Source: Promethearchaeota archaeon (GTDB lineage: Archaea > Asgardarchaeota > Lokiarchaeia > Sigyniarchaeales > SOKP01). From it: a stretch of 64,000 nt of DNA. Positions within the stretch are counted from its first letter, which is position 1, and every line of letters starts with the position of its first letter. The notes under the pieces were generated by a model. It did not search any database. It was not told the origin of the DNA and was given only the letters and a program-made list of their open reading frames with translations. The DNA lies in assembly GCA_019057795.1 (NCBI GenBank), contig JAHLWS010000078.1, forward strand, positions 138,857 through 202,856, given 5' to 3'. A program made the translations under genes and the position numbers. This document shows positions 8,444-36,753 of the stretch, piece by piece.

Positions 8444-9453
8444 CTACTATTTTCTTCCAGTAATTCAATTACTTCATCGGGAAATTGTTCTCCTTTATTT
8501 TTCATGCGTTCAAACATGTCCTTAACTTCAGAAATCGTATTTCCATAAATATGCAGAGAATTGCTAAAATCTAAGTAATGACCCATCCCTACGCCGAGCT
8601 GTTCAGCAACATATTTCTGAATTCGAATCATTCCATTTACATTTGCTTCCCACGCTCTAAATAAATCTCTGCTTCTCCAAGTTGTTTGCATTATTAATTT
8701 ATCATCTTTCACTCGCATATAAATTCTCTGAAGACAGGGAGGGTCGATATGAAAGGGATCAACAAGTGGACGCCATGTAATTGCTTGAGCTCTGCGCGAA
8801 TAAGGTTTTTCTTTCAATTTGTTAATTATATATTCAATTTGATCTATTTTTGGGAATTTAATTACTTCAATTGGTATCTTTTGAATTCCAACTTGCTCTG
8901 ATATTTTTTTATTTAAATCGAAGTCAACAAGATTTTTCAATTTCCAAATTATTGATTCGCCAGATGTCTGGACCTTTTCTGACTTCAATAGTTTTTGGTG
9001 TTTTTTGACAAAGTCATTATCAACTAATTCTAAATCGTAATTAACATGGATAGAATCCTCTAGGGAATAGGGAGAATAATTAAATATTCGATCGTGATAG
9101 GAATACGGAAAACTCGAGCCAGAATCCCAGATATAATGATCATTTACGCCCTCCATAATCTCTTCAATGTAACCACTTTGGATTGATCCGATTAAATAGG
9201 TATCTGCCATACAACCGTATACTTCAAAAGAGTTTCCATACTTTGATCTAATTTTCATTACTTTATCTTTACGCATAATCGGACTACTTATAGGATCTTT
9301 TATTTCTATTAATACAGTAGCATCTTTAGATGGAAGATCTTCTTGTTTATCGTACTCTGTTTTAATATCGTCACCGTTATATAAAACTTGAGCCACAGCT
9401 GAAAGCCACGCGTCTCGAACTGTTTTTTTGGAAATAAATATAACTTGAGCCAT
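8440..9453 (-). CDS. thyA: archaeal-type thymidylate synthase with internal insertion
   Basis: YSYHDR, DQIEY, SRRAQAITW, PPCLQ (catalytic Cys), RSRD, SLHIY. Confidence 0.85.
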   Translation of the reverse strand: MAQVIFISKKTVRDAWLSAVAQVLYNGDDIKTEYDKQEDLPSKDATVLIEIKDPISSPIMRKDKVMKIRSKYGNSFEVYGCMADTYLIGSIQSGYIEEIMEGVNDHYIWDSGSSFPYSYHDRIFNYSPYSLEDSIHVNYDLELVDNDFVKKHQKLLKSEKVQTSGESIIWKLKNLVDFDLNKKISEQVGIQKIPIEVIKFPKIDQIEYIINKLKEKPYSRRAQAITWRPLVDPFHIDPPCLQRIYMRVKDDKLIMQTTWRSRDLFRAWEANVNGMIRIQKYVAEQLGVGMGHYLDFSNSLHIYGNTISEVKDMFERMKNKGEQFPDEVIELLEENSS

Positions 9454-9556
9454 AATTTTAAACCTCTAAACATTCACTTAACATGTTAATTTTTTAGTAT
9501 TATAATTTTATTGTTAAAACTTTAACAAAATGATATTTTTGTTATACTATATCAAA

Positions 9557-29818: not shown

Positions 29819-30211
29819 TTAAATAACATGTAATGCTTGGTTTAAAATATCTAAATTTTTAACAAATTCTTCCTTAAATAGATGATAATACGTAAATTTT
29901 TGTTTTTTATATCCTTGTATTAATCCTGCTACTACAAGCTTTCTTAAATGATGAGATATTGTCGATTGGGACTTATCTAATATAGTTTCTAATTCGCATA
30001 CACATCTATCTTGTTCTTTTAAAGCGTTAATAATGATCAACCTTTCTTTAGACGCTAAAGCCAATGTGAATTTCTCAATCGCATCAAATGTTTTATTTTC
30101 TTCTAATTCTTTCCCAAATTTTAGCAAATTATTAAAGAAACCATTTGAGTTAGAGCATTCTTTACAAGCACATAGCATTATCTTAATTTCTGATTCGCGT
30201 TTTTCTTTCAT
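29819..30211 (-). CDS. arsR: ArsR/SmtB transcriptional repressor
   Basis: RLIII..L...DRCVCELE...SQSTISHHL..L; divergent from acr3. Confidence 0.9.
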   Translation of the reverse strand: MKEKRESEIKIMLCACKECSNSNGFFNNLLKFGKELEENKTFDAIEKFTLALASKERLIIINALKEQDRCVCELETILDKSQSTISHHLRKLVVAGLIQGYKKQKFTYYHLFKEEFVKNLDILNQALHVI

Positions 30212-30264
30212 AAACTAAATTCCTTTTTATATTTTACAAAATACTTTTATCTTATATATAAAAG

Positions 30265-30330
30265 TAAATCGATAAATATAAATCTATAACATTTTAAGGT
30301 TTCTTTACGCTCAAATCGACAACCTTAAAT
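30265..30330. promoter_or_regulatory. arsR/acr3 divergent promoter with putative ArsR operator; duplicated at 34826-34891
   Basis: Imperfect palindrome ATCGATAAATATAAATCTAT; 24-bp and 20-bp blocks recur identically 4561 bp downstream. Confidence 0.7.
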
Positions 30331-30387
30331 TTGAAGTACAACTTTTATCAAATAATAATTATTCAATCTTAAAGGAATTAAGTAAAA

Positions 30388-31474
30388 ATGAAATCAGAAG
30401 AACCAAAAGAAGAATCAAAAAAAATTAGTTATTTTGAAAAACTTCTTCCGTTATGGGTCGCATTATGTATAATAGCGGGCATTATTCTTTCTCAGCTCAT
30501 CCCTGAAATAAGCGAAGCTATTAATTCTTTACAAATAGGAGGAATTTCTATTCCCATTGGAATCTGCTTATTCCTGATGATGTATCCCGCTATGTTGAAT
30601 CTTCAATTTTCTGAGTTGAAAAAATTAGGTAAAAACCCAAAACCAATTATATTAACGCTTATATCTAATTGGGTCGTTGCTCCTTTCGTAGGGTTAGCAA
30701 TGGCAAACATTTTTTTACCTGGATATGAACAGTTAATAGTTGCAATCATTCTTCTAAGTTCAAGCCCATGTACTGCTATGGTCCTAATCTGGGGCTGGAT
30801 GGCAAGAGGGAATCAAGAACAAAATGTAATTAATACTAGTTTAAATACGATAACTATCATAATCGGTTATGTCCCTTTAGTCGCATTATTAACAGGCATT
30901 AAAAATATTCCTATAGATATCTTTCTTTTGTTGATTTCTTTGGTGTTTTTTATAGGAGTACCATTATTATTGGGTATAGTTAGTAAAAAAATTATTATTT
31001 CAATAAAAGGAGATGCTTGGTTTAACGATGTCTATAGACCAATTGTAGGAAAAGTTTCGATTGTAGCACTATTAACGACTTTAATTGTTCTTTTTTCCCT
31101 AAATGGAACTGTCTTGATAAATAATCCTGATCTGTTGCTCTTAATTTCTATACCTCTTTTAGTGGGATTTGTAATTGTTGTTAGTTTTAATATATTAATT
31201 ACAAAACTCTTTAAGTTGAGATATGAGGAAGCTGTTATTACGGTTATAATAGGGTCTTCAAGTCATTTTGAAATAGCTATTGCTACTGCGATTGCTATGT
31301 ATGGGATTGGCTCTATTGCGGCATTAGGAACTACCATGGGACTATACGATTCTTAGTTTTACTATGAACGGGTCATTCTGGGAAGTTCCTGTGATGCTAT
31401 CGATTGTATATTTGGGAGGATACTTAGGAAAACGAGGATTTTGGGAGAGTTCAAAGAGTAGGATTGAGAAATAA
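30388..31474 (+). CDS. acr3: Acr3 arsenite efflux transporter, join(30388..31345,31377..31474), 351 aa if spliced
   Basis: MMYP, NWVVAPF, SPCTAMV, SSHFEIAIA; conserved C-terminal EVPVML helix lies beyond a 31-nt insertion containing a stop. Confidence 0.9.
31346..31376 (+). other. putative bulge-helix-bulge (EndA-type) intron in acr3 mRNA
   Basis: 4-bp helix GACT(31340-43)/GGTC(31371-74), 3-nt bulges ATA and ATT, inner hairpin, outer stem AGGAACT/AGTTCCT; canonical cuts give GGA CTA TTC TGG GAA. Confidence 0.85.
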
Positions 31475-31556
31475 ATAATAATTTTAAATTTTTTTTTACC
31501 TTTAATTCTAGGAATATGCTAAACTCATTTCGTTAATAAAATAGAAAAGGGATTAT

Positions 31557-34115
31557 TTAGATAAATCTTATTATATCACCAAAAGTTTGCCTTAGCTTGT
31601 CGATTTGTTTCAGATCTCTCCAATTACATTTAGGAAGTTTTCTAAGACGATAATTATTCACTTTAAATAATTTCCTTACTTGTTGCTCAAACTCAGAATG
31701 TATGAATTCTACGTAGTTATCTCGTCTTATTGTATGATCTACAATAATATAAATATCAATATATCCACTATTTTTTAGATTTTGTTTAAAATTATCACTA
31801 GATTTTAAATGTTTATAATCGTTGGCATGGGATCCATTTCTAGGAGTTCTATGCCTGAATCTATCAACATATTCTTCTAGTGAAAAATGCTCGCGATCCC
31901 AATATTCCCCTGCAACGCTTAGAGTAAATACATCTTTTCCAATTTTTATATCGACATAAGCAAAAGCATCAAAATGCATGTGTCTATATCTCCGTAATGA
32001 TTTATAATCGCTAGGCAAAATATCAACAACCTGATCAAAAGGAAGAACTTCATATAATGAAGTTGGCCTTTCACCAAAATTCTTATGAAATAATCTTGAA
32101 AGTAAATAGCGCATTATCCTTTCATTCGTTATTTTACCTCCCGAACATATATCACATGATTTTAGATCTAAACTATAATCATCAGGTTTAGATTTAAATT
32201 TAAAACTTGGATGATACTTACAAGACCATAGAAAAACTTCTCTGGTTGGCTGTTTTAACTTCTCAATATGACTCAACGGGGTTTCCAGATTAAAATTAAA
32301 TTTATCACCCCGAGCAATTATTTGTTGGCTCGTTAATCTATGACTTTCATTATAACATTCAGCACACCAATTATTATAAGATCTAATACGTTCCATGCTA
32401 ATGCTAAATTCTCCATGTTTATTACAAATAAATGGGAACAGTATTTCTGAGACCTTTTGTTGTATATTGCGCGGTTTCTTTAATTCTTGATTTATTCGAG
32501 TTTTAAATTCAGTTTTAGTAAATTTAAATCTTGCATTTCTTAATTCCGCTTCTTTAACAAAATCTTGATATGAATGGGACTTTTCAATTCTTGAACATAG
32601 AGGACATTTAGCGCGATATAAATGTTTGTAAGCAACATTAAATTTTTCATGGTTGGAACATTTACAAGAAAGTTCAAATAATAAGTTTTCTATTAGAGTT
32701 CCTGTCAGCACAGTTTCTAAATATTCAAATATTTTCGTCTCCATATTAAGTCCTAAAGTATTGATTCTACTACAATAGGAATTCCATTTCTCAATTAAGC
32801 TAAAAACACGCTTTTCAGCACAAATTAATTTGTAATCAAGTATTAAATTAAAAAAAACAGTATAATTGCTTGGAAATTCTTGTTTCAGATTAAAAAACCA
32901 ATTATCTAAAACTTTTTCATCTATTAAGGAGTTAGGTCTCTTAAATTTATTAGATTTCAAAGTAGCGAAAGCTAAAGCTTCAGAACCATTAGATGTACCA
33001 TATAATTTCTCGGCAATTCTATTATCTGGTAAATCTTCTTGATATAATTTTATTTGTTTCACTAAATTTACAAGAAAATCTTTCGATATGGAACTACTAT
33101 TCTTTATATTTGGAAATTGATTCTTAATAAATTCCTTATAATGCTCTAAAGCTAAAACTTCGATTTTTTTGATTTTTCTTGGTCGATTTTCATTGGTTTG
33201 CTTCATGGAATCAAAACCTTCTTTTTCTTTTGGTTTACAATTTTCTAAATCCACAAATCTTTTTATAAGTTTAATCACATCAGATTTAGTAAATTTCGGA
33301 GTTAGCCCATTAGTATAAAATTCATGATATGCAGAAAATCTATCAAAAGCAGTTACCTTTGATTTCTTAATTTCTTTATTTTCAGGATTTAATCCGAGAA
33401 GGGATCTACACGTACCAATGTTTAGGATTTTATCATAATTACTCTTGATTTCTTTTAAAGTCAGTTCGGTTTTATTTTCTAACGATTTTATTACCTCAAT
33501 GCCCTTTATTATTTCTTTTTGCCATTCTTTCAAGAAATTTCGAAGGTTTTTAGAAAGCGGTTTAAGATTTTCATACTCAGAAAAGATTTTCGAATGAACT
33601 CGAAGGTGCTTAAGTATCCTCTTATATTGGATGGTTATTTCATCCATTCCATGTCTAATTGCCTTATTCACGAGATTTGGTTTAGAACTTTCTCCTTTTT
33701 TTAGTGCTTTAATCTGTTTTTTAGTCAATTGCTTGAGATATGTATTCGAAACCGAGTCCATGTAATATGAAACTATAGGAGCTCCCCTTCCTATTATGAT
33801 ACAATATACCCATCCCTCTATGAACGGGGTAGTTTCATGGGGGAATCTTGATTTTACACCCTCAATTAATTCTTGTGGAGGAAGTCCTGCTTTATCAAAC
33901 AAGCATGCTAACGCAGCATCCACGAAATCACCAATCCTTTCATTAACATAGACTAAAGGAATGTGATGTTTCTTACATTTAGGATACTTCCCAAAACCAA
34001 AAAATCTTAATTTAAGAGGTTTAACTCTAGTCATGAACTCACACCCAAAATTTGGACAGATTGCGACTCGATCTTCTCTCACTGTTTTTCGTGATACATT
34101 GGTGTATGCTTTCAT
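31557..34115 (-). CDS. cassette ORF B: conserved 280-aa N-domain + three zinc-ribbon repeats + PD-(D/E)XK/Vsr-like nuclease domain
   Basis: CSNH...CPLC, CNKH...CAEC, CKYH...CDIC; NERIMRYLL...HFDAF...AGEYW..EH. Confidence 0.8.
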   Translation of the reverse strand: MKAYTNVSRKTVREDRVAICPNFGCEFMTRVKPLKLRFFGFGKYPKCKKHHIPLVYVNERIGDFVDAALACLFDKAGLPPQELIEGVKSRFPHETTPFIEGWVYCIIIGRGAPIVSYYMDSVSNTYLKQLTKKQIKALKKGESSKPNLVNKAIRHGMDEITIQYKRILKHLRVHSKIFSEYENLKPLSKNLRNFLKEWQKEIIKGIEVIKSLENKTELTLKEIKSNYDKILNIGTCRSLLGLNPENKEIKKSKVTAFDRFSAYHEFYTNGLTPKFTKSDVIKLIKRFVDLENCKPKEKEGFDSMKQTNENRPRKIKKIEVLALEHYKEFIKNQFPNIKNSSSISKDFLVNLVKQIKLYQEDLPDNRIAEKLYGTSNGSEALAFATLKSNKFKRPNSLIDEKVLDNWFFNLKQEFPSNYTVFFNLILDYKLICAEKRVFSLIEKWNSYCSRINTLGLNMETKIFEYLETVLTGTLIENLLFELSCKCSNHEKFNVAYKHLYRAKCPLCSRIEKSHSYQDFVKEAELRNARFKFTKTEFKTRINQELKKPRNIQQKVSEILFPFICNKHGEFSISMERIRSYNNWCAECYNESHRLTSQQIIARGDKFNFNLETPLSHIEKLKQPTREVFLWSCKYHPSFKFKSKPDDYSLDLKSCDICSGGKITNERIMRYLLSRLFHKNFGERPTSLYEVLPFDQVVDILPSDYKSLRRYRHMHFDAFAYVDIKIGKDVFTLSVAGEYWDREHFSLEEYVDRFRHRTPRNGSHANDYKHLKSSDNFKQNLKNSGYIDIYIIVDHTIRRDNYVEFIHSEFEQQVRKLFKVNNYRLRKLPKCNWRDLKQIDKLRQTFGDIIRFI

Positions 34116-34720
34116 GAAGTCAATCTCTCCTCGAGTTGTTTTTTTGGATTTCTTATCTTTACTCTTGGTGCTTTTTCTAATAGACTCTCTAATTCTCCTT
34201 CTAAACTATGGTAGTTTATTCTAAGTTCCTCATAAAACTCGCTGAATTGTATATGTAAGCACTTTTTCACTAAACATATGTTTTTTGCCAATACAACTAC
34301 GAATTTGAGTAAGCTTAGATGATCATGAATGTTCTCATCCGAAAAATAGTGAATTAAAATGGATATTTTTTCTGTTATTTCTGAAAGTCTGATTATGGGT
34401 GTTCTATTATTGTTAAAAAATAGAGATCGTATCCCTTCCTCAAGAGTTTGAGTGCTGTTTTTTAATTTCTTAAGCATTGTTATGAATTCATGGGTTAATG
34501 TTTCTAATTCTTGCTTTCGACTGAAAAATTTATTGTTTCTATAATTTTCAGCAAGATGGGGATTGGTCCAAAATCGATATCTTATCACTTCCATCCTATA
34601 ATTAAAAAAAGTTCGGAGTTGACGTGAAAGTTCTTTTATTTTTCTTACACCCTCAATCTCATACCAATCATTAAAAATTTCTTCATAATCAGTTTCAAAA
34701 TCTTCCATATACTCTGTCAT
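34112..34720 (-). CDS. cassette ORF A
   Basis: Paralogue of 15399-16013 and 48692-49303; ATGA overlap with ORF B. Confidence 0.85.
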   Translation of the reverse strand: MTEYMEDFETDYEEIFNDWYEIEGVRKIKELSRQLRTFFNYRMEVIRYRFWTNPHLAENYRNNKFFSRKQELETLTHEFITMLKKLKNSTQTLEEGIRSLFFNNNRTPIIRLSEITEKISILIHYFSDENIHDHLSLLKFVVVLAKNICLVKKCLHIQFSEFYEELRINYHSLEGELESLLEKAPRVKIRNPKKQLEERLTS

Positions 34721-34825
34721 AATTTATTAACATCTTTTACTAACCAATTATCACAGATATATTTAAATAAAAAAGTGAGTTGAGAAAAGCGGACAATGCC
34801 TTTATATAATATCATAATTAGATAA

Positions 34826-34891
34826 TAAATCGATAAATATAAATCTATAGCATTTTAAACTGTGATGTAGGTCAAATCGACAACCTTAAAT
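34826..34891. repeat. second copy of the arsR/acr3 promoter-operator
   Basis: TAAATCGATAAATATAAATCTATA (34826-49 = 30265-88) and TCAAATCGACAACCTTAAAT (34872-91 = 30311-30). Confidence 0.9.
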
Positions 34892-34947
34892 GTGAAATAT
34901 TATACTATATATTGAACCATCATAATATGAAGAGTTAATTCAAAAAT

Positions 34948-35028
34948 TTGATTGAAGTACCTGTGATGTTATCCATAGTTTACTTAGGAAGATATCTTAA
35001 AAAGCGAGGATTTTGGAAATCCAATTGA
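34948..35028 (+). pseudogene. orphan diverged 3' end of acr3
   Basis: LIEVPVMLSIVYLGRYLKKRGFWKSN* vs exon 2 FWEVPVMLSIVYLGGYLGKRGFWES; 19/21 aa identical, 10 synonymous codon differences. Confidence 0.9.
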
Positions 35029-35049
35029 ATTTTAAATAAATTTTAAGTT

Positions 35050-36753
35050 TTGAATAAAAGAAATACTGTAATAGGTCTGAAAATAATGGCTGTAGCTTTT
35101 ATGCGTAAATTAGAGGAAGAACCAGAGACTTACGATTCGAAGTTTACTTCACTTACGAAAGGGGTGAATGTCAATGTTCATAGCTGGGTATTGGATCAAA
35201 TTCAATCAGATCAATCAATTTTAGAAATTGGGTCTGGGACGGGTTCATTAGCTTCAAAAATGGTTTCAAAAGGAAATATTGTTGTTGCAATTGATAATAA
35301 CATTCAAATGATTAATTATGCTAAGCAGAAATACTCAGATACTTTAAAAAATGGTACGCTGTTGTATCGATTAGGTTCATTTACGGATTTACCCGTTGAA
35401 AAGAGATCGTTAGATTTAATTGTCAGCACATTTCTATTATCAGAACTTCGCCCGTTAGAGCAACAAATATTTCTTAGAAACGCCTGGAAAGCGTTAAAAC
35501 CAAATGGTCGCTTGATAATAGCCGCAGAGTTTGTTCCATCAGGGTTTTGGAAGGTCAATTTTAAAATAAAAAGGTGGTGGTTCAAAAAAAAACTGCGTCG
35601 TCTTCGTTTAAAAAGTACCTTTTTAGTTAAATGGTTTTTCAATTATATTGAACCATTAGGTTTTAAGATCGGATACCAAAAGAAGTGGAAGCACGGTTCA
35701 ATTCAAGCAATTGAATTACTTAAAATTAACGATAACGGAGAAGACGAACCCGATTATTATCGTCCTAAAACAAAGAAGTTTAAAGGACTAGTTTCGCAAT
35801 TAAGAATTTATCGATGTCTTTTTACCGGACAGATAGATAGAGTTCCAATAGAACCTGGAATATATAAATCTGGTAATCCCAATCCCAACTCTCCTATTAT
35901 CGTAACGGCTAATTATGAGTATACTTATATAAAATTAATGCGTGATTTACAAAGTATTGATGCGTGGGTTTTATGTTTGGATTCTAATGGAATTAACGTA
36001 TGGTGCGCTGCTCGAGGAGATGATTTTGGCAATAAGCAATTACTAGAAGCCATTGAAGCAACAGATATTCGAGTAGTTTCAGAGAAAAAGACCTTAATTC
36101 TCCCCCAACTTTCAGCAGGAGGGGTTGCTATACCTCAATTACCAGAAAAATTTCCTTTCAAAGTAAAATACGGTCCTGTTTGGTCAAAAGATTTAAAACA
36201 ATTTTTATCCGAGCGACCAGTCCGAAAACCAGATTCTATGAAACTTGCCAAATTTACACTGTCTCATCGTATTCGGGCTGGAATCACACATACTACGTTT
36301 TTATTCCGAAAAATCTTTTTAATTCCGATAATTGCAATATTACTCTCGATTATCGCCTTGAATAACGTCACTATCTTATGGTGGCTTGGAGAATTAGTAA
36401 TATGGATCGTTCTCTCAAATGCAATAATATCAATCTTCTTTCCACTCTCTAAATTTACTCGTAAATTTATTACTAAAGCTGTATTTTTTGGATGTTTTAG
36501 CATATTTTTCATAGGGGCAATTTCTTGGATATTTCATAGTTCATATCTATATTTACTCTTGAACTTTGCTATATATTTCTGGATAACATTCTTTTCTACG
36601 ATGTCTTTTAGCGGTTATACGATGTCAACCAGTCCGAAAGACATTCAAGCAGAATATCCTGTTTTTAGAAAAATAAATCTTACTCTAATAATTTTAGTTG
36701 TAATTCTATTAGGAATAAATATAATATTTTTTATGTTAAATATAATAAATTAA
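35050..36753 (+). CDS. hgcA: class I SAM methyltransferase fused to HgcA-like corrinoid membrane protein
   Basis: ILEIGSGTG SAM motif; PGIYKSGNP..NSPIIVTANY, GINVWCAARG cap helix, LILPQLSAGGV, YGPV, C-terminal TM helices with FSGYTMSTS; likely start ATG 35086. Confidence 0.8.
   Translation: MNKRNTVIGLKIMAVAFMRKLEEEPETYDSKFTSLTKGVNVNVHSWVLDQIQSDQSILEIGSGTGSLASKMVSKGNIVVAIDNNIQMINYAKQKYSDTLKNGTLLYRLGSFTDLPVEKRSLDLIVSTFLLSELRPLEQQIFLRNAWKALKPNGRLIIAAEFVPSGFWKVNFKIKRWWFKKKLRRLRLKSTFLVKWFFNYIEPLGFKIGYQKKWKHGSIQAIELLKINDNGEDEPDYYRPKTKKFKGLVSQLRIYRCLFTGQIDRVPIEPGIYKSGNPNPNSPIIVTANYEYTYIKLMRDLQSIDAWVLCLDSNGINVWCAARGDDFGNKQLLEAIEATDIRVVSEKKTLILPQLSAGGVAIPQLPEKFPFKVKYGPVWSKDLKQFLSERPVRKPDSMKLAKFTLSHRIRAGITHTTFLFRKIFLIPIIAILLSIIALNNVTILWWLGELVIWIVLSNAIISIFFPLSKFTRKFITKAVFFGCFSIFFIGAISWIFHSSYLYLLLNFAIYFWITFFSTMSFSGYTMSTSPKDIQAEYPVFRKINLTLIILVVILLGINIIFFMLNIIN

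Follow-up and report, generated by a model that had tools for sequence, protein, structure and literature searches.

Collaborative homing has been described in the cyanophage S-PM2, where, as far as the work of Zeng et al. 2009 is outlined in PMC6083498, a group I intron in psbA is partnered with the free-standing nuclease F-CphI. Terminus-replacing homing is known from the WHO elements that reside at FBA1 in the yeasts Torulaspora and Lachancea (Coughlan et al. 2020, PMC7282813), in which identity drops at the cleavage site, the 3' end of the gene is replaced and the old end is displaced downstream (PMC7282813, section 10). In Crenarchaeota the cbf5 mRNA carries a bulge-helix-bulge (BHB) intron (PMC2738675). 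In the present study we have analysed a stretch of 64,000 nt from a Promethearchaeota archaeon (the window, with about 30% G+C; coordinates are window positions, and its genome is designated G000), in which the arsenite-pump gene acr3 is interrupted by 31 nt with the features of a BHB intron and is followed by a putative nuclease cassette, genes A and B, and by a second, orphan acr3 3' end. We propose that the interval from ~31160 to ~35030 is probably one selfish homing unit of the collaborative type, made up of the end of exon 1, the 31-nt intron, a replacement exon 2, the A-B cassette, a second promoter copy (P') and the orphan. The element would work like the WHO elements and like phage collaborative homing, and is a member of neither family.

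The acr3 open reading frame (ORF; 30388-31356) ends in ...GTTMGLYDS and a stop codon, and the last helix of the protein (FWEVPVML...IEK and stop) resumes in another frame, extending to 31474. Removal of the 31 nt at 31346-31376 (+ strand) joins exon 1 (30388-31345, + strand; Pfam SBF, E = 8e-37) to exon 2 (31377-31474, + strand), which we regard as an element-borne replacement 3' end and which closes with the tail GFWESSKSRIEK before its stop codon. The product, GTTMGL-F-WEVPVML, restores the junction GTTMGLFWEVPVML, which is found exactly in 51 of 51 intronless orthologues examined from two genera and beyond. This recovery of the orthologue junction to the base is the strongest argument for considering the 31 nt a putative intron.

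The RNA fold of 31320-31400 beats those of shuffled sequences (z = -3.8) and displays the canonical hBHBh' geometry, with a 4-bp central helix (GACU 31340-43 with GGUC 31371-74), bulges of 3 nt each (5' AUA at 31344-46 and 3' AUU at 31375-77), outer stems AGGAACU/AGUUCCU and UGG/CUG (pairs G-C, G-U and U-G) and an inner hairpin. Archaeal tRNA introns are cut after the second base of each bulge; such cuts are predicted here to leave GGACUAU joined to UCUGG, encoding GTTMGLFWEVPVML. The machinery for this step is present in G000, with two PF01974 (EndA) genes and one PF01139 (RtcB) gene. The 12 distinct intron alleles recovered from three genera and from metagenomes are all 31 nt long and about 92% identical, compared with 68-80% identity between alleles in the neighbouring exon 2, the protein of which is conserved in all of them. 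Across the 12 alleles the central helix and the adjacent helix are paired throughout (100%); one allele (G090) carries a compensatory C-G to U-A double change in the central helix, and pair 29-50 switches between G-C and U-A. With the BHB fold 92% of the cells are paired, against 40-52% when the fold is slid. Thus, we infer a BHB intron that would be excised by the tRNA-splicing machinery. The situation resembles that of cbf5 in the presence of a BHB motif within a protein gene, in the predicted removal by this machinery and in the patchy distribution among relatives. It differs in that cbf5 is another gene in another phylum, and its intron is accompanied by neither a nuclease gene nor a displaced end. 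We know of no mechanism of mobility at the DNA level for the cbf5 intron.

Two other readings of the 31 nt were considered and discarded. Descent of the insert from a diverged copy of the exon 1 terminus found no support, since 1153 of 2000 shuffles equal the local alignment, which is thus not significant; and translational bypass or frameshifting was rejected, as no matching take-off and landing codons were seen by eye and 31 nt including a stop would have to be skipped. A scan of 30000-35200 with Rfam gave nothing relevant. The intron contains an ATG (31364-31366) in frame with exon 2 and conserved in 12 of 12 alleles, which may have been kept because its bases pair in the inner hairpin. In two genomes exon 1 of acr3 is damaged, being broken by one TGA and one TAG in G122 (L049:2435-3472) and reading as two open frames in G091 (L047), with intron and exon 2 intact in both; a pseudogene or an assembly error could account for it.

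The intron is patchily distributed and tends to travel with the nuclease gene. A pattern search located it in 9 of the 161 genomes of the class, in three genera (3/42, 2/10 and 4/54), and it is present in addition in 7 metagenome contigs, all 7 of them with the nuclease gene. Only 7 of the 161 genomes encode the type of nuclease found at acr3 (copy 2 of the cassette, recognised by the C-terminal part of B), and in each of them it neighbours an acr3 with the intron. A preliminary description of the locus had proposed that co-occurrence of intron and cassette be examined among acr3 orthologues, and the comparison supports the link: the nuclease gene lies just downstream in 10 of the 12 distinct intron alleles, versus neither cassette nor orphan within 1.5 kb at any of 51 intronless acr3 loci. 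Two intron-bearing loci are without the nuclease gene, namely G122, which has a beta-propeller gene instead and keeps the orphan, and G146, which has neither.

Comparison with relatives devoid of the intron gives an account of what has been inserted. In these (e.g. G001 and G036) the methyltransferase gene follows acr3 directly. Between G001 and G000 identity is 93-98% through arsR and acr3 to ~31155 and falls to 73-80% afterwards; in another genus, G105 and G149 are about 97% identical up to a point some 45 nt short of the intron. Empty-site relatives of their own exist for at least the g1 clade and G149. The orphan of G149, situated 14.6 kb downstream, is 92.7% identical to the native 3' end of the empty-site G105. 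Because identity to the empty-site relatives drops upstream of it, the intron lies inside an imported tract, the left edge of which varies from 45 to 190 nt upstream of the intron; in G000 the last ~130-190 nt of exon 1 (from ~31160) belong to this co-converted tract. A variable left edge is what co-conversion during the repair of a break would produce. Two further readings of these boundaries were dismissed. The preliminary description had offered collaborative homing or, as its alternative, a scar of the same event: the link between intron and nuclease and the location of the break point near the intron site (see below) agree with the former, and a junction scar was rejected, since the imported DNA begins 45-190 nt upstream and the intron is not at the edge of the tract. 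A site-specific integrase acting on an attachment (att) site was also discarded, as the cassette holds no integrase recognised by Pfam or NCBIfam and the left boundaries vary.

The sequence to the right of the intron has a history of its own. The sister genomes G000 and G028 are 95-98% identical through arsR, exon 1 and the intron, drop abruptly to 68-72% at 31389, remain low through the cassette and return to 95-99% from 35109. Exon 2 of G000 and its 3' untranslated region (UTR) find their best matches only among intron-bearing alleles of other genera, G090 of another genus being closer (82%) than the sister genome G028 (77%). The tail GFWE[STNA]S...E is shared by the intron alleles alone, and intronless alleles end in GFWKS, GFWKSN or GFWKSE; it is this tail and the UTR that are informative, as the nucleotide identity of the first 68 nt of exon 2 is too noisy to indicate origin. 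The synonymous divergence (dS) of the nuclease domain is 0.43 between G028 and G149, from different genera, with 3.05 for exon 1 of the host acr3; 0.76 between G149 and G153, with exon 1 saturated; and 0.41 between the sisters G000 and G028, with 0.21 for exon 1. Across genera, then, the dS of the nuclease gene is 0.4-0.8 and that of host acr3 exceeds 2. The linkage, the boundaries with empty-site relatives and the low dS of the nuclease lead us to consider that intron, new gene end and nuclease gene move together, and very probably constitute one mobile unit propagated by break repair. No relatives of the nuclease were found in viral contigs.

Side observations were made at three of these loci. 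In G149 (L045:1426-7690) an island like the cyclic-oligonucleotide-based antiphage signalling system (CBASS), with two SMODS nucleotidyltransferases and an HNH-SAVED effector, stands between the intron-bearing acr3 and a truncated nuclease gene, with a gene for a 951-aa leucine-rich repeat protein beyond, and the homing site there appears to have become a landing pad for defence genes. Contig C101 of G005 (L032:1-557) leaves the arrangement of G000 and G028 inside gene A and continues into unrelated coding sequence; it is possibly a chimeric assembly. Just past gene A, the metagenome contig L088 (7386-7463) has a fragment resembling the C-terminal 26 residues of ArsR, with another two some 4 kb beyond it; these fragments may be orphan ends of another target gene.

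The orphan acr3 3' end (34954-35028, + strand; EVPVML...GFWKSN and stop; 78% identical to exon 2) directly precedes the gene for a methyltransferase/CdhD(HgcA)-like protein (MT-HgcA), the spot occupied by the native acr3 end in relatives. As the preliminary description had stated, the cassette lies between the intron-bearing acr3 and the orphan, with B at 31557-34115 and A at 34112-34720, and similarity to the orphan begins within two codons of the intron site: the repeat 31382-31444/34954-35016 is 78% identical and starts at GAAGT (the EVP codons), 5 nt (codons F and W) past the 3' splice site 31376/31377. For a gene of ~1.06 kb, a breakpoint placed at random would come within 6 nt of the intron in ~1% of cases. 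In six loci the left edge of the orphan lies close to the intron insertion site, at about -17 in G122, about -12 in the metagenome contig L085, -1 to -5 in G091, +6 in G000, about +12 in G153 and +17 in G149. What adjoins the orphan on its left varies by locus: P' in G000, P' together with a second arsR (arsR') in G091, and different sequence at the remaining loci. Such a fixed edge on the right, with changing neighbours on the left, would be expected as the trace of a site-specific break and its subsequent repair, and the orphan edges together with the divergence boundaries place the putative break point at or near the intron insertion site.

The G000 orphan retains a native-type tail, KSN and stop, and its best matches are intronless alleles of the genus; in G028 the orphan has been deleted. 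On sequence evidence it is a displaced older acr3 end in the course of decay. In these respects the locus is like the WHO elements, with the nuclease gene directly downstream of the target gene, the old 3' end as a decaying downstream fragment, a sharp fall of identity between alleles at the target site and discordant histories of the 5' and 3' parts of the gene; unlike them, it is archaeal and also bears a promoter copy. Two interpretations of the DNA before the orphan were abandoned. Against an orphan preceded by a degenerate intron, the weak resemblance to the intron ahead of 34954 is equalled by 475 of 2000 shuffles and lacks significance, and the ATG there is absent from G028; the ATG AAG AGT at 34927 is not conserved in G028 either, against a remnant start codon of the orphan. 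In G091 the orphan (L047, reverse strand, ~9280-9465) is contained in an intact ORF of ~61 codons with its own ATG (MIENLKVG...FWEVPIML...), which sits behind the diverged second arsR (68% nucleotide identity) and an operator copy, and which could encode a one-helix peptide.

Between the cassette and the orphan lies P' (34815-34903, + strand), where the native arsR/acr3 intergenic promoter/operator stretch P (30265-30338, + strand; conserved in relatives) is duplicated at 34826-34899 with 84% identity (direct repeat D7); 54 nt of unrelated sequence separate this repeat from the orphan. The best outside matches of P' are the P regions of the same-genus species G024 and G014, and P' is about as close to the P regions of other species as to P of G000 itself; it is kept in G028 despite the deletion of the orphan there. 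We consider P' to be a putative promoter copy of foreign origin. It faces the MT-HgcA gene on one side and A-B on the other. Its probable role is to bring the downstream genes back under arsenic-regulated expression, and its divergent orientation may let it drive A-B too. Both P 30265-30338 and P' 34826-34899 show two AAATCGAYAA repeats around an A/T-rich box. These repeats are candidates for the ArsR operator, and the motif also precedes the orphan in G091.

Gene B (852 aa, - strand) adjoins acr3 and is convergent with it, its stop codon lying 82 nt past that of acr3; gene A (202 aa, - strand) overlaps the start of B. The N-terminal ~290 residues of B (33246-34115) form a module common to six paralogues, the central region contains CxxC zinc ribbons, and a Vsr-like domain is predicted at residues 599-852 (31560-32321). 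An earlier structure model of the latter from 6 sequences was unusable (predicted local distance difference test, pLDDT, 41.7); once rare relatives had joined the alignment, the AlphaFold2 model reached a pLDDT of 84.7. The family is rare indeed, with 9 matches in 1.84 billion representative proteins. A structural search of representatives with VIA-align gave as top matches a RAP domain (Z 7.3), I-Bth0305I (Z 7.2, covering 96 of its 98 residues) and Vsr (Z 7.0), in alignments of ~100-114 residues, and lower matches to DUF559 (Z 5.4), VRR-NUC, TnsA, Hjc and restriction enzymes; they are coherent in that all belong to the PD-(D/E)xK superfamily. Leads from a language-model atlas for the same domain were DUF4379, DUF723 and DUF559. 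Residues D118, W141, H145 and D176 are invariant in 13 sequences of the domain, and dN/dS is 0.14-0.28. The model suggests that the C-terminal domain of B is a nuclease like Vsr and I-Bth0305I, with activity predicted. A predicted alpha-beta-beta-beta-alpha-beta core with conserved acidic and histidine residues would bring it close to I-Bth0305I (of the EDxHD group) and Vsr (PDB 3r3p and 1cw0); it has no detectable sequence similarity to them, the likeness being one of predicted fold. The gene of I-Bth0305I resides within a group I intron. B, in contrast, is free-standing and much larger, and carries in addition zinc ribbons and the N-terminal module that it has in common with HNH-bearing paralogues. 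B differs as well from the WHO nucleases, which are intein-derived LAGLIDADG/zinc-finger proteins, in its predicted PD-(D/E)xK, Vsr-like domain with treble-clef ribbons; no Pfam match of LAGLIDADG/zinc-finger WHO/HO type was obtained in B.

The cassette appears to be composite. The window holds two more copies and the genome six B paralogues, which share only A and residues 1 to ~290-313 of B, the remainder of B being different; copy 1 bears HNH_3 domains. A is kept beside B in the three window copies, in G090 and in L088. Some copies of the nuclease are long (A plus an 850-aa B) and others short, at 430-560 aa without A or the N-terminal module; purifying selection acts on both, the short copies of G149, G153 and L085 included. 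This suggests that the core of the element is the nuclease part by itself, and that the A/B N-terminal module is an addition which has been combined with different nucleases (HNH in copy 1). Neither A nor B of copy 2 has a match in Pfam or NCBIfam, phmmer against PDB sequences returned nothing, gene A has no Pfam family and the atlas search with the N-terminal module of B gave no usable match. The contexts of the distant nuclease homologues P0004 and P0006 yielded nothing informative. Near P0006 (L082:6181-7123) a gene for a Gtr1/RagA-type GTPase is called as pieces of 237 and 60 aa, which could be another interrupted or end-replaced gene.

Taken together, the best-supported reading of the locus is collaborative homing, for which we propose the following mechanism. 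The Vsr-like domain of B would cut an intronless acr3 at or within ~17 nt of the intron site, and the break would be repaired from an allele bearing the element. The comparison with empty-site relatives shows the left crossover in exon 1, 45-190 nt upstream, and the right-hand join at or within the old 3' end, which is displaced downstream as the orphan. The host tRNA-splicing endonuclease and RtcB would then excise the 31 nt exactly, as structure, frame and selection on exon 2 suggest, keeping the allele functional. Splitting of the target by the intron may render the allele immune to its own nuclease, the least certain step of the proposal; and P' would restore arsenic-regulated transcription of the genes cut off by the inverted cassette, perhaps driving A-B as well.

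The role of the intron in immunity deserves separate consideration. The exons offer no position, over 36 nt to either side, by which alleles with and without the intron could be told apart, so that the intron is the only consistent difference at the site; in the WHO elements, by contrast, substitutions carried by the replacement 3' end confer resistance. Some intronless alleles differ from the spliced junction by no more than 2 mismatches over 30 nt. Because the intron is the sole consistent difference, the logic of collaborative homing would apply if the recognition site spans the junction. As in the S-PM2 psbA/F-CphI pair, to the extent that PMC6083498 sets it out, an ORF-less intron in a conserved gene is neighboured by a free-standing nuclease gene, the evidence points to the insertion site of the intron as the target, and intron and nuclease gene are co-inherited. 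Within the same account the differences are that the acr3 intron is a 31-nt BHB intron predicted to be removed by the host and the psbA intron a self-splicing ribozyme, that the host here is a cellular Asgard genome instead of a phage, that F-CphI has an Endo VII fold and B a predicted Vsr-like one, with cleavage and protection predicted here, and that the acr3 element leaves a displaced gene end at each event.

Several observations weigh against the proposal as a whole or against single steps of it. Intron-bearing genomes within a genus are kin and the co-occurrence counts overstate independence; separate gains must be fewer than the counts because kin are not independent. The covariation of the intron is thin, two pairs having double changes and shuffles matching the observed values in 11-80 of 500. 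As regards the nuclease, Foldseek against PDB gave nothing at E <= 0.001 and Pfam no match for B, and a Z of ~7 is only middling by the tool's own note. The point at which G000 and G028 diverge (31389) is 14 nt into exon 2 rather than at the intron; this could reflect subsequent exchanges, or cuts made on the right-hand side of the intron, with immunity set by the sequence of exon 2. Finally, the orphan of L085 has an uninterrupted junction (ATGGGATTATTCTGGGAGG) beside a resident nuclease gene, so that the recognition site could not be wholly within ~-12 to +20, unless the orphan is tolerated or mutated. With all this in mind, the chances that the intron protects its allele from the nuclease appear about evenly balanced.

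These same observations lend themselves to a rather unlikely alternative, a WHO-like terminus-replacement element in which the intron is a passenger co-converted near the break and immunity is provided by exon 2. The boundary 14 nt into exon 2 fits it, as do the 20-32% difference of exon 2 between alleles, the persistence of the L085 orphan despite its intact junction and the fact that WHO elements gain resistance through the replaced 3' end (PMC7282813). It is opposed by the lack of any fixed exon difference in the 36 nt on either side and by the near-identical intronless alleles mentioned above; the exact length of 31 nt and ~92% identity in 12 alleles show selection on the intron, which splicing alone could explain. 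That the 31 nt remain unspliced is a much less probable reading, in which acr3 would be either broken or a split gene coding for a 322-aa protein ending at the TAG and a separate helix starting from the insert ATG (MNGSFWEVP...). The damaged exon 1 of G122 and G091 speaks for it, as do the in-frame ATG kept in every allele and the two compensatory changes in the central helix, both synonymous in those frames. However, the TAG is lost in G153/L086 and the ATG has no ribosome-binding motif ahead of it. Conservation is as high at the non-coding positions of the insert as in the remainder, those flanking-exon wobble positions which pair in the outer helix are fixed only in intron alleles, and the predicted BHB cuts yield the orthologue junction to the base.

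It is also conceivable, with a very small probability, that no homing was involved, and that a tandem duplication of arsR-P-acr3 trapped the cassette, the second copy then losing its interior by chance and the intron being independent. P' and the orphan do resemble an acr3 with a deleted interior, and G091 has a second arsR beside P'. Nevertheless, this arsR' and arsR share no more than 68% identity, and for P' as well as the orphan the better matches are in other species, not in the copies of G000 itself. At each of six loci the deletion would need to have stopped no further than 17 nt from the intron site; moreover, the nuclease is much less diverged across genera than host genes, and empty-site relatives show an insertion, not a duplication.

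The native flanks of the unit complete the description. On the left, the arsR regulator gene (29819-30211, - strand; Pfam HTH_5, E = 5e-17) shows 95-98% identity to G028 and G001; on the right, the MT-HgcA gene (35050-36753, + strand) has matches to Pfam Methyltransf_11 and CdhD.

BHB introns in protein-coding genes are rare, cbf5 being the classic case, and the appearance of BHB introns at new sites in archaea calls for an explanation. At acr3 an intron of this kind in a protein gene is tied, both physically and evolutionarily, to a nuclease cassette that crosses genera, which offers a testable route by which BHB introns could spread between species; mobility of the intron at the DNA level by break repair is directly testable, as empty-site relatives are available. 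Homing by terminus replacement in the style of the yeast WHO elements appears to exist in the archaeal relatives of eukaryotes, and the locus provides compact and possibly useful parts, a 31-nt insert predicted to be spliced by the host and a rare family of predicted nucleases. The wider idea, that in Asgard archaea BHB introns are mobilised as DNA by free-standing homing nucleases, with the intron acting as the determinant of immunity, we hold tentatively, at slightly less than an even chance. If true, it would represent a third partnership of intron and nuclease beside those of group I introns and inteins, and it would explain in concrete terms how archaeal genes come by their BHB introns, an intron spliced by the host having been recruited as the shield of a selfish element.

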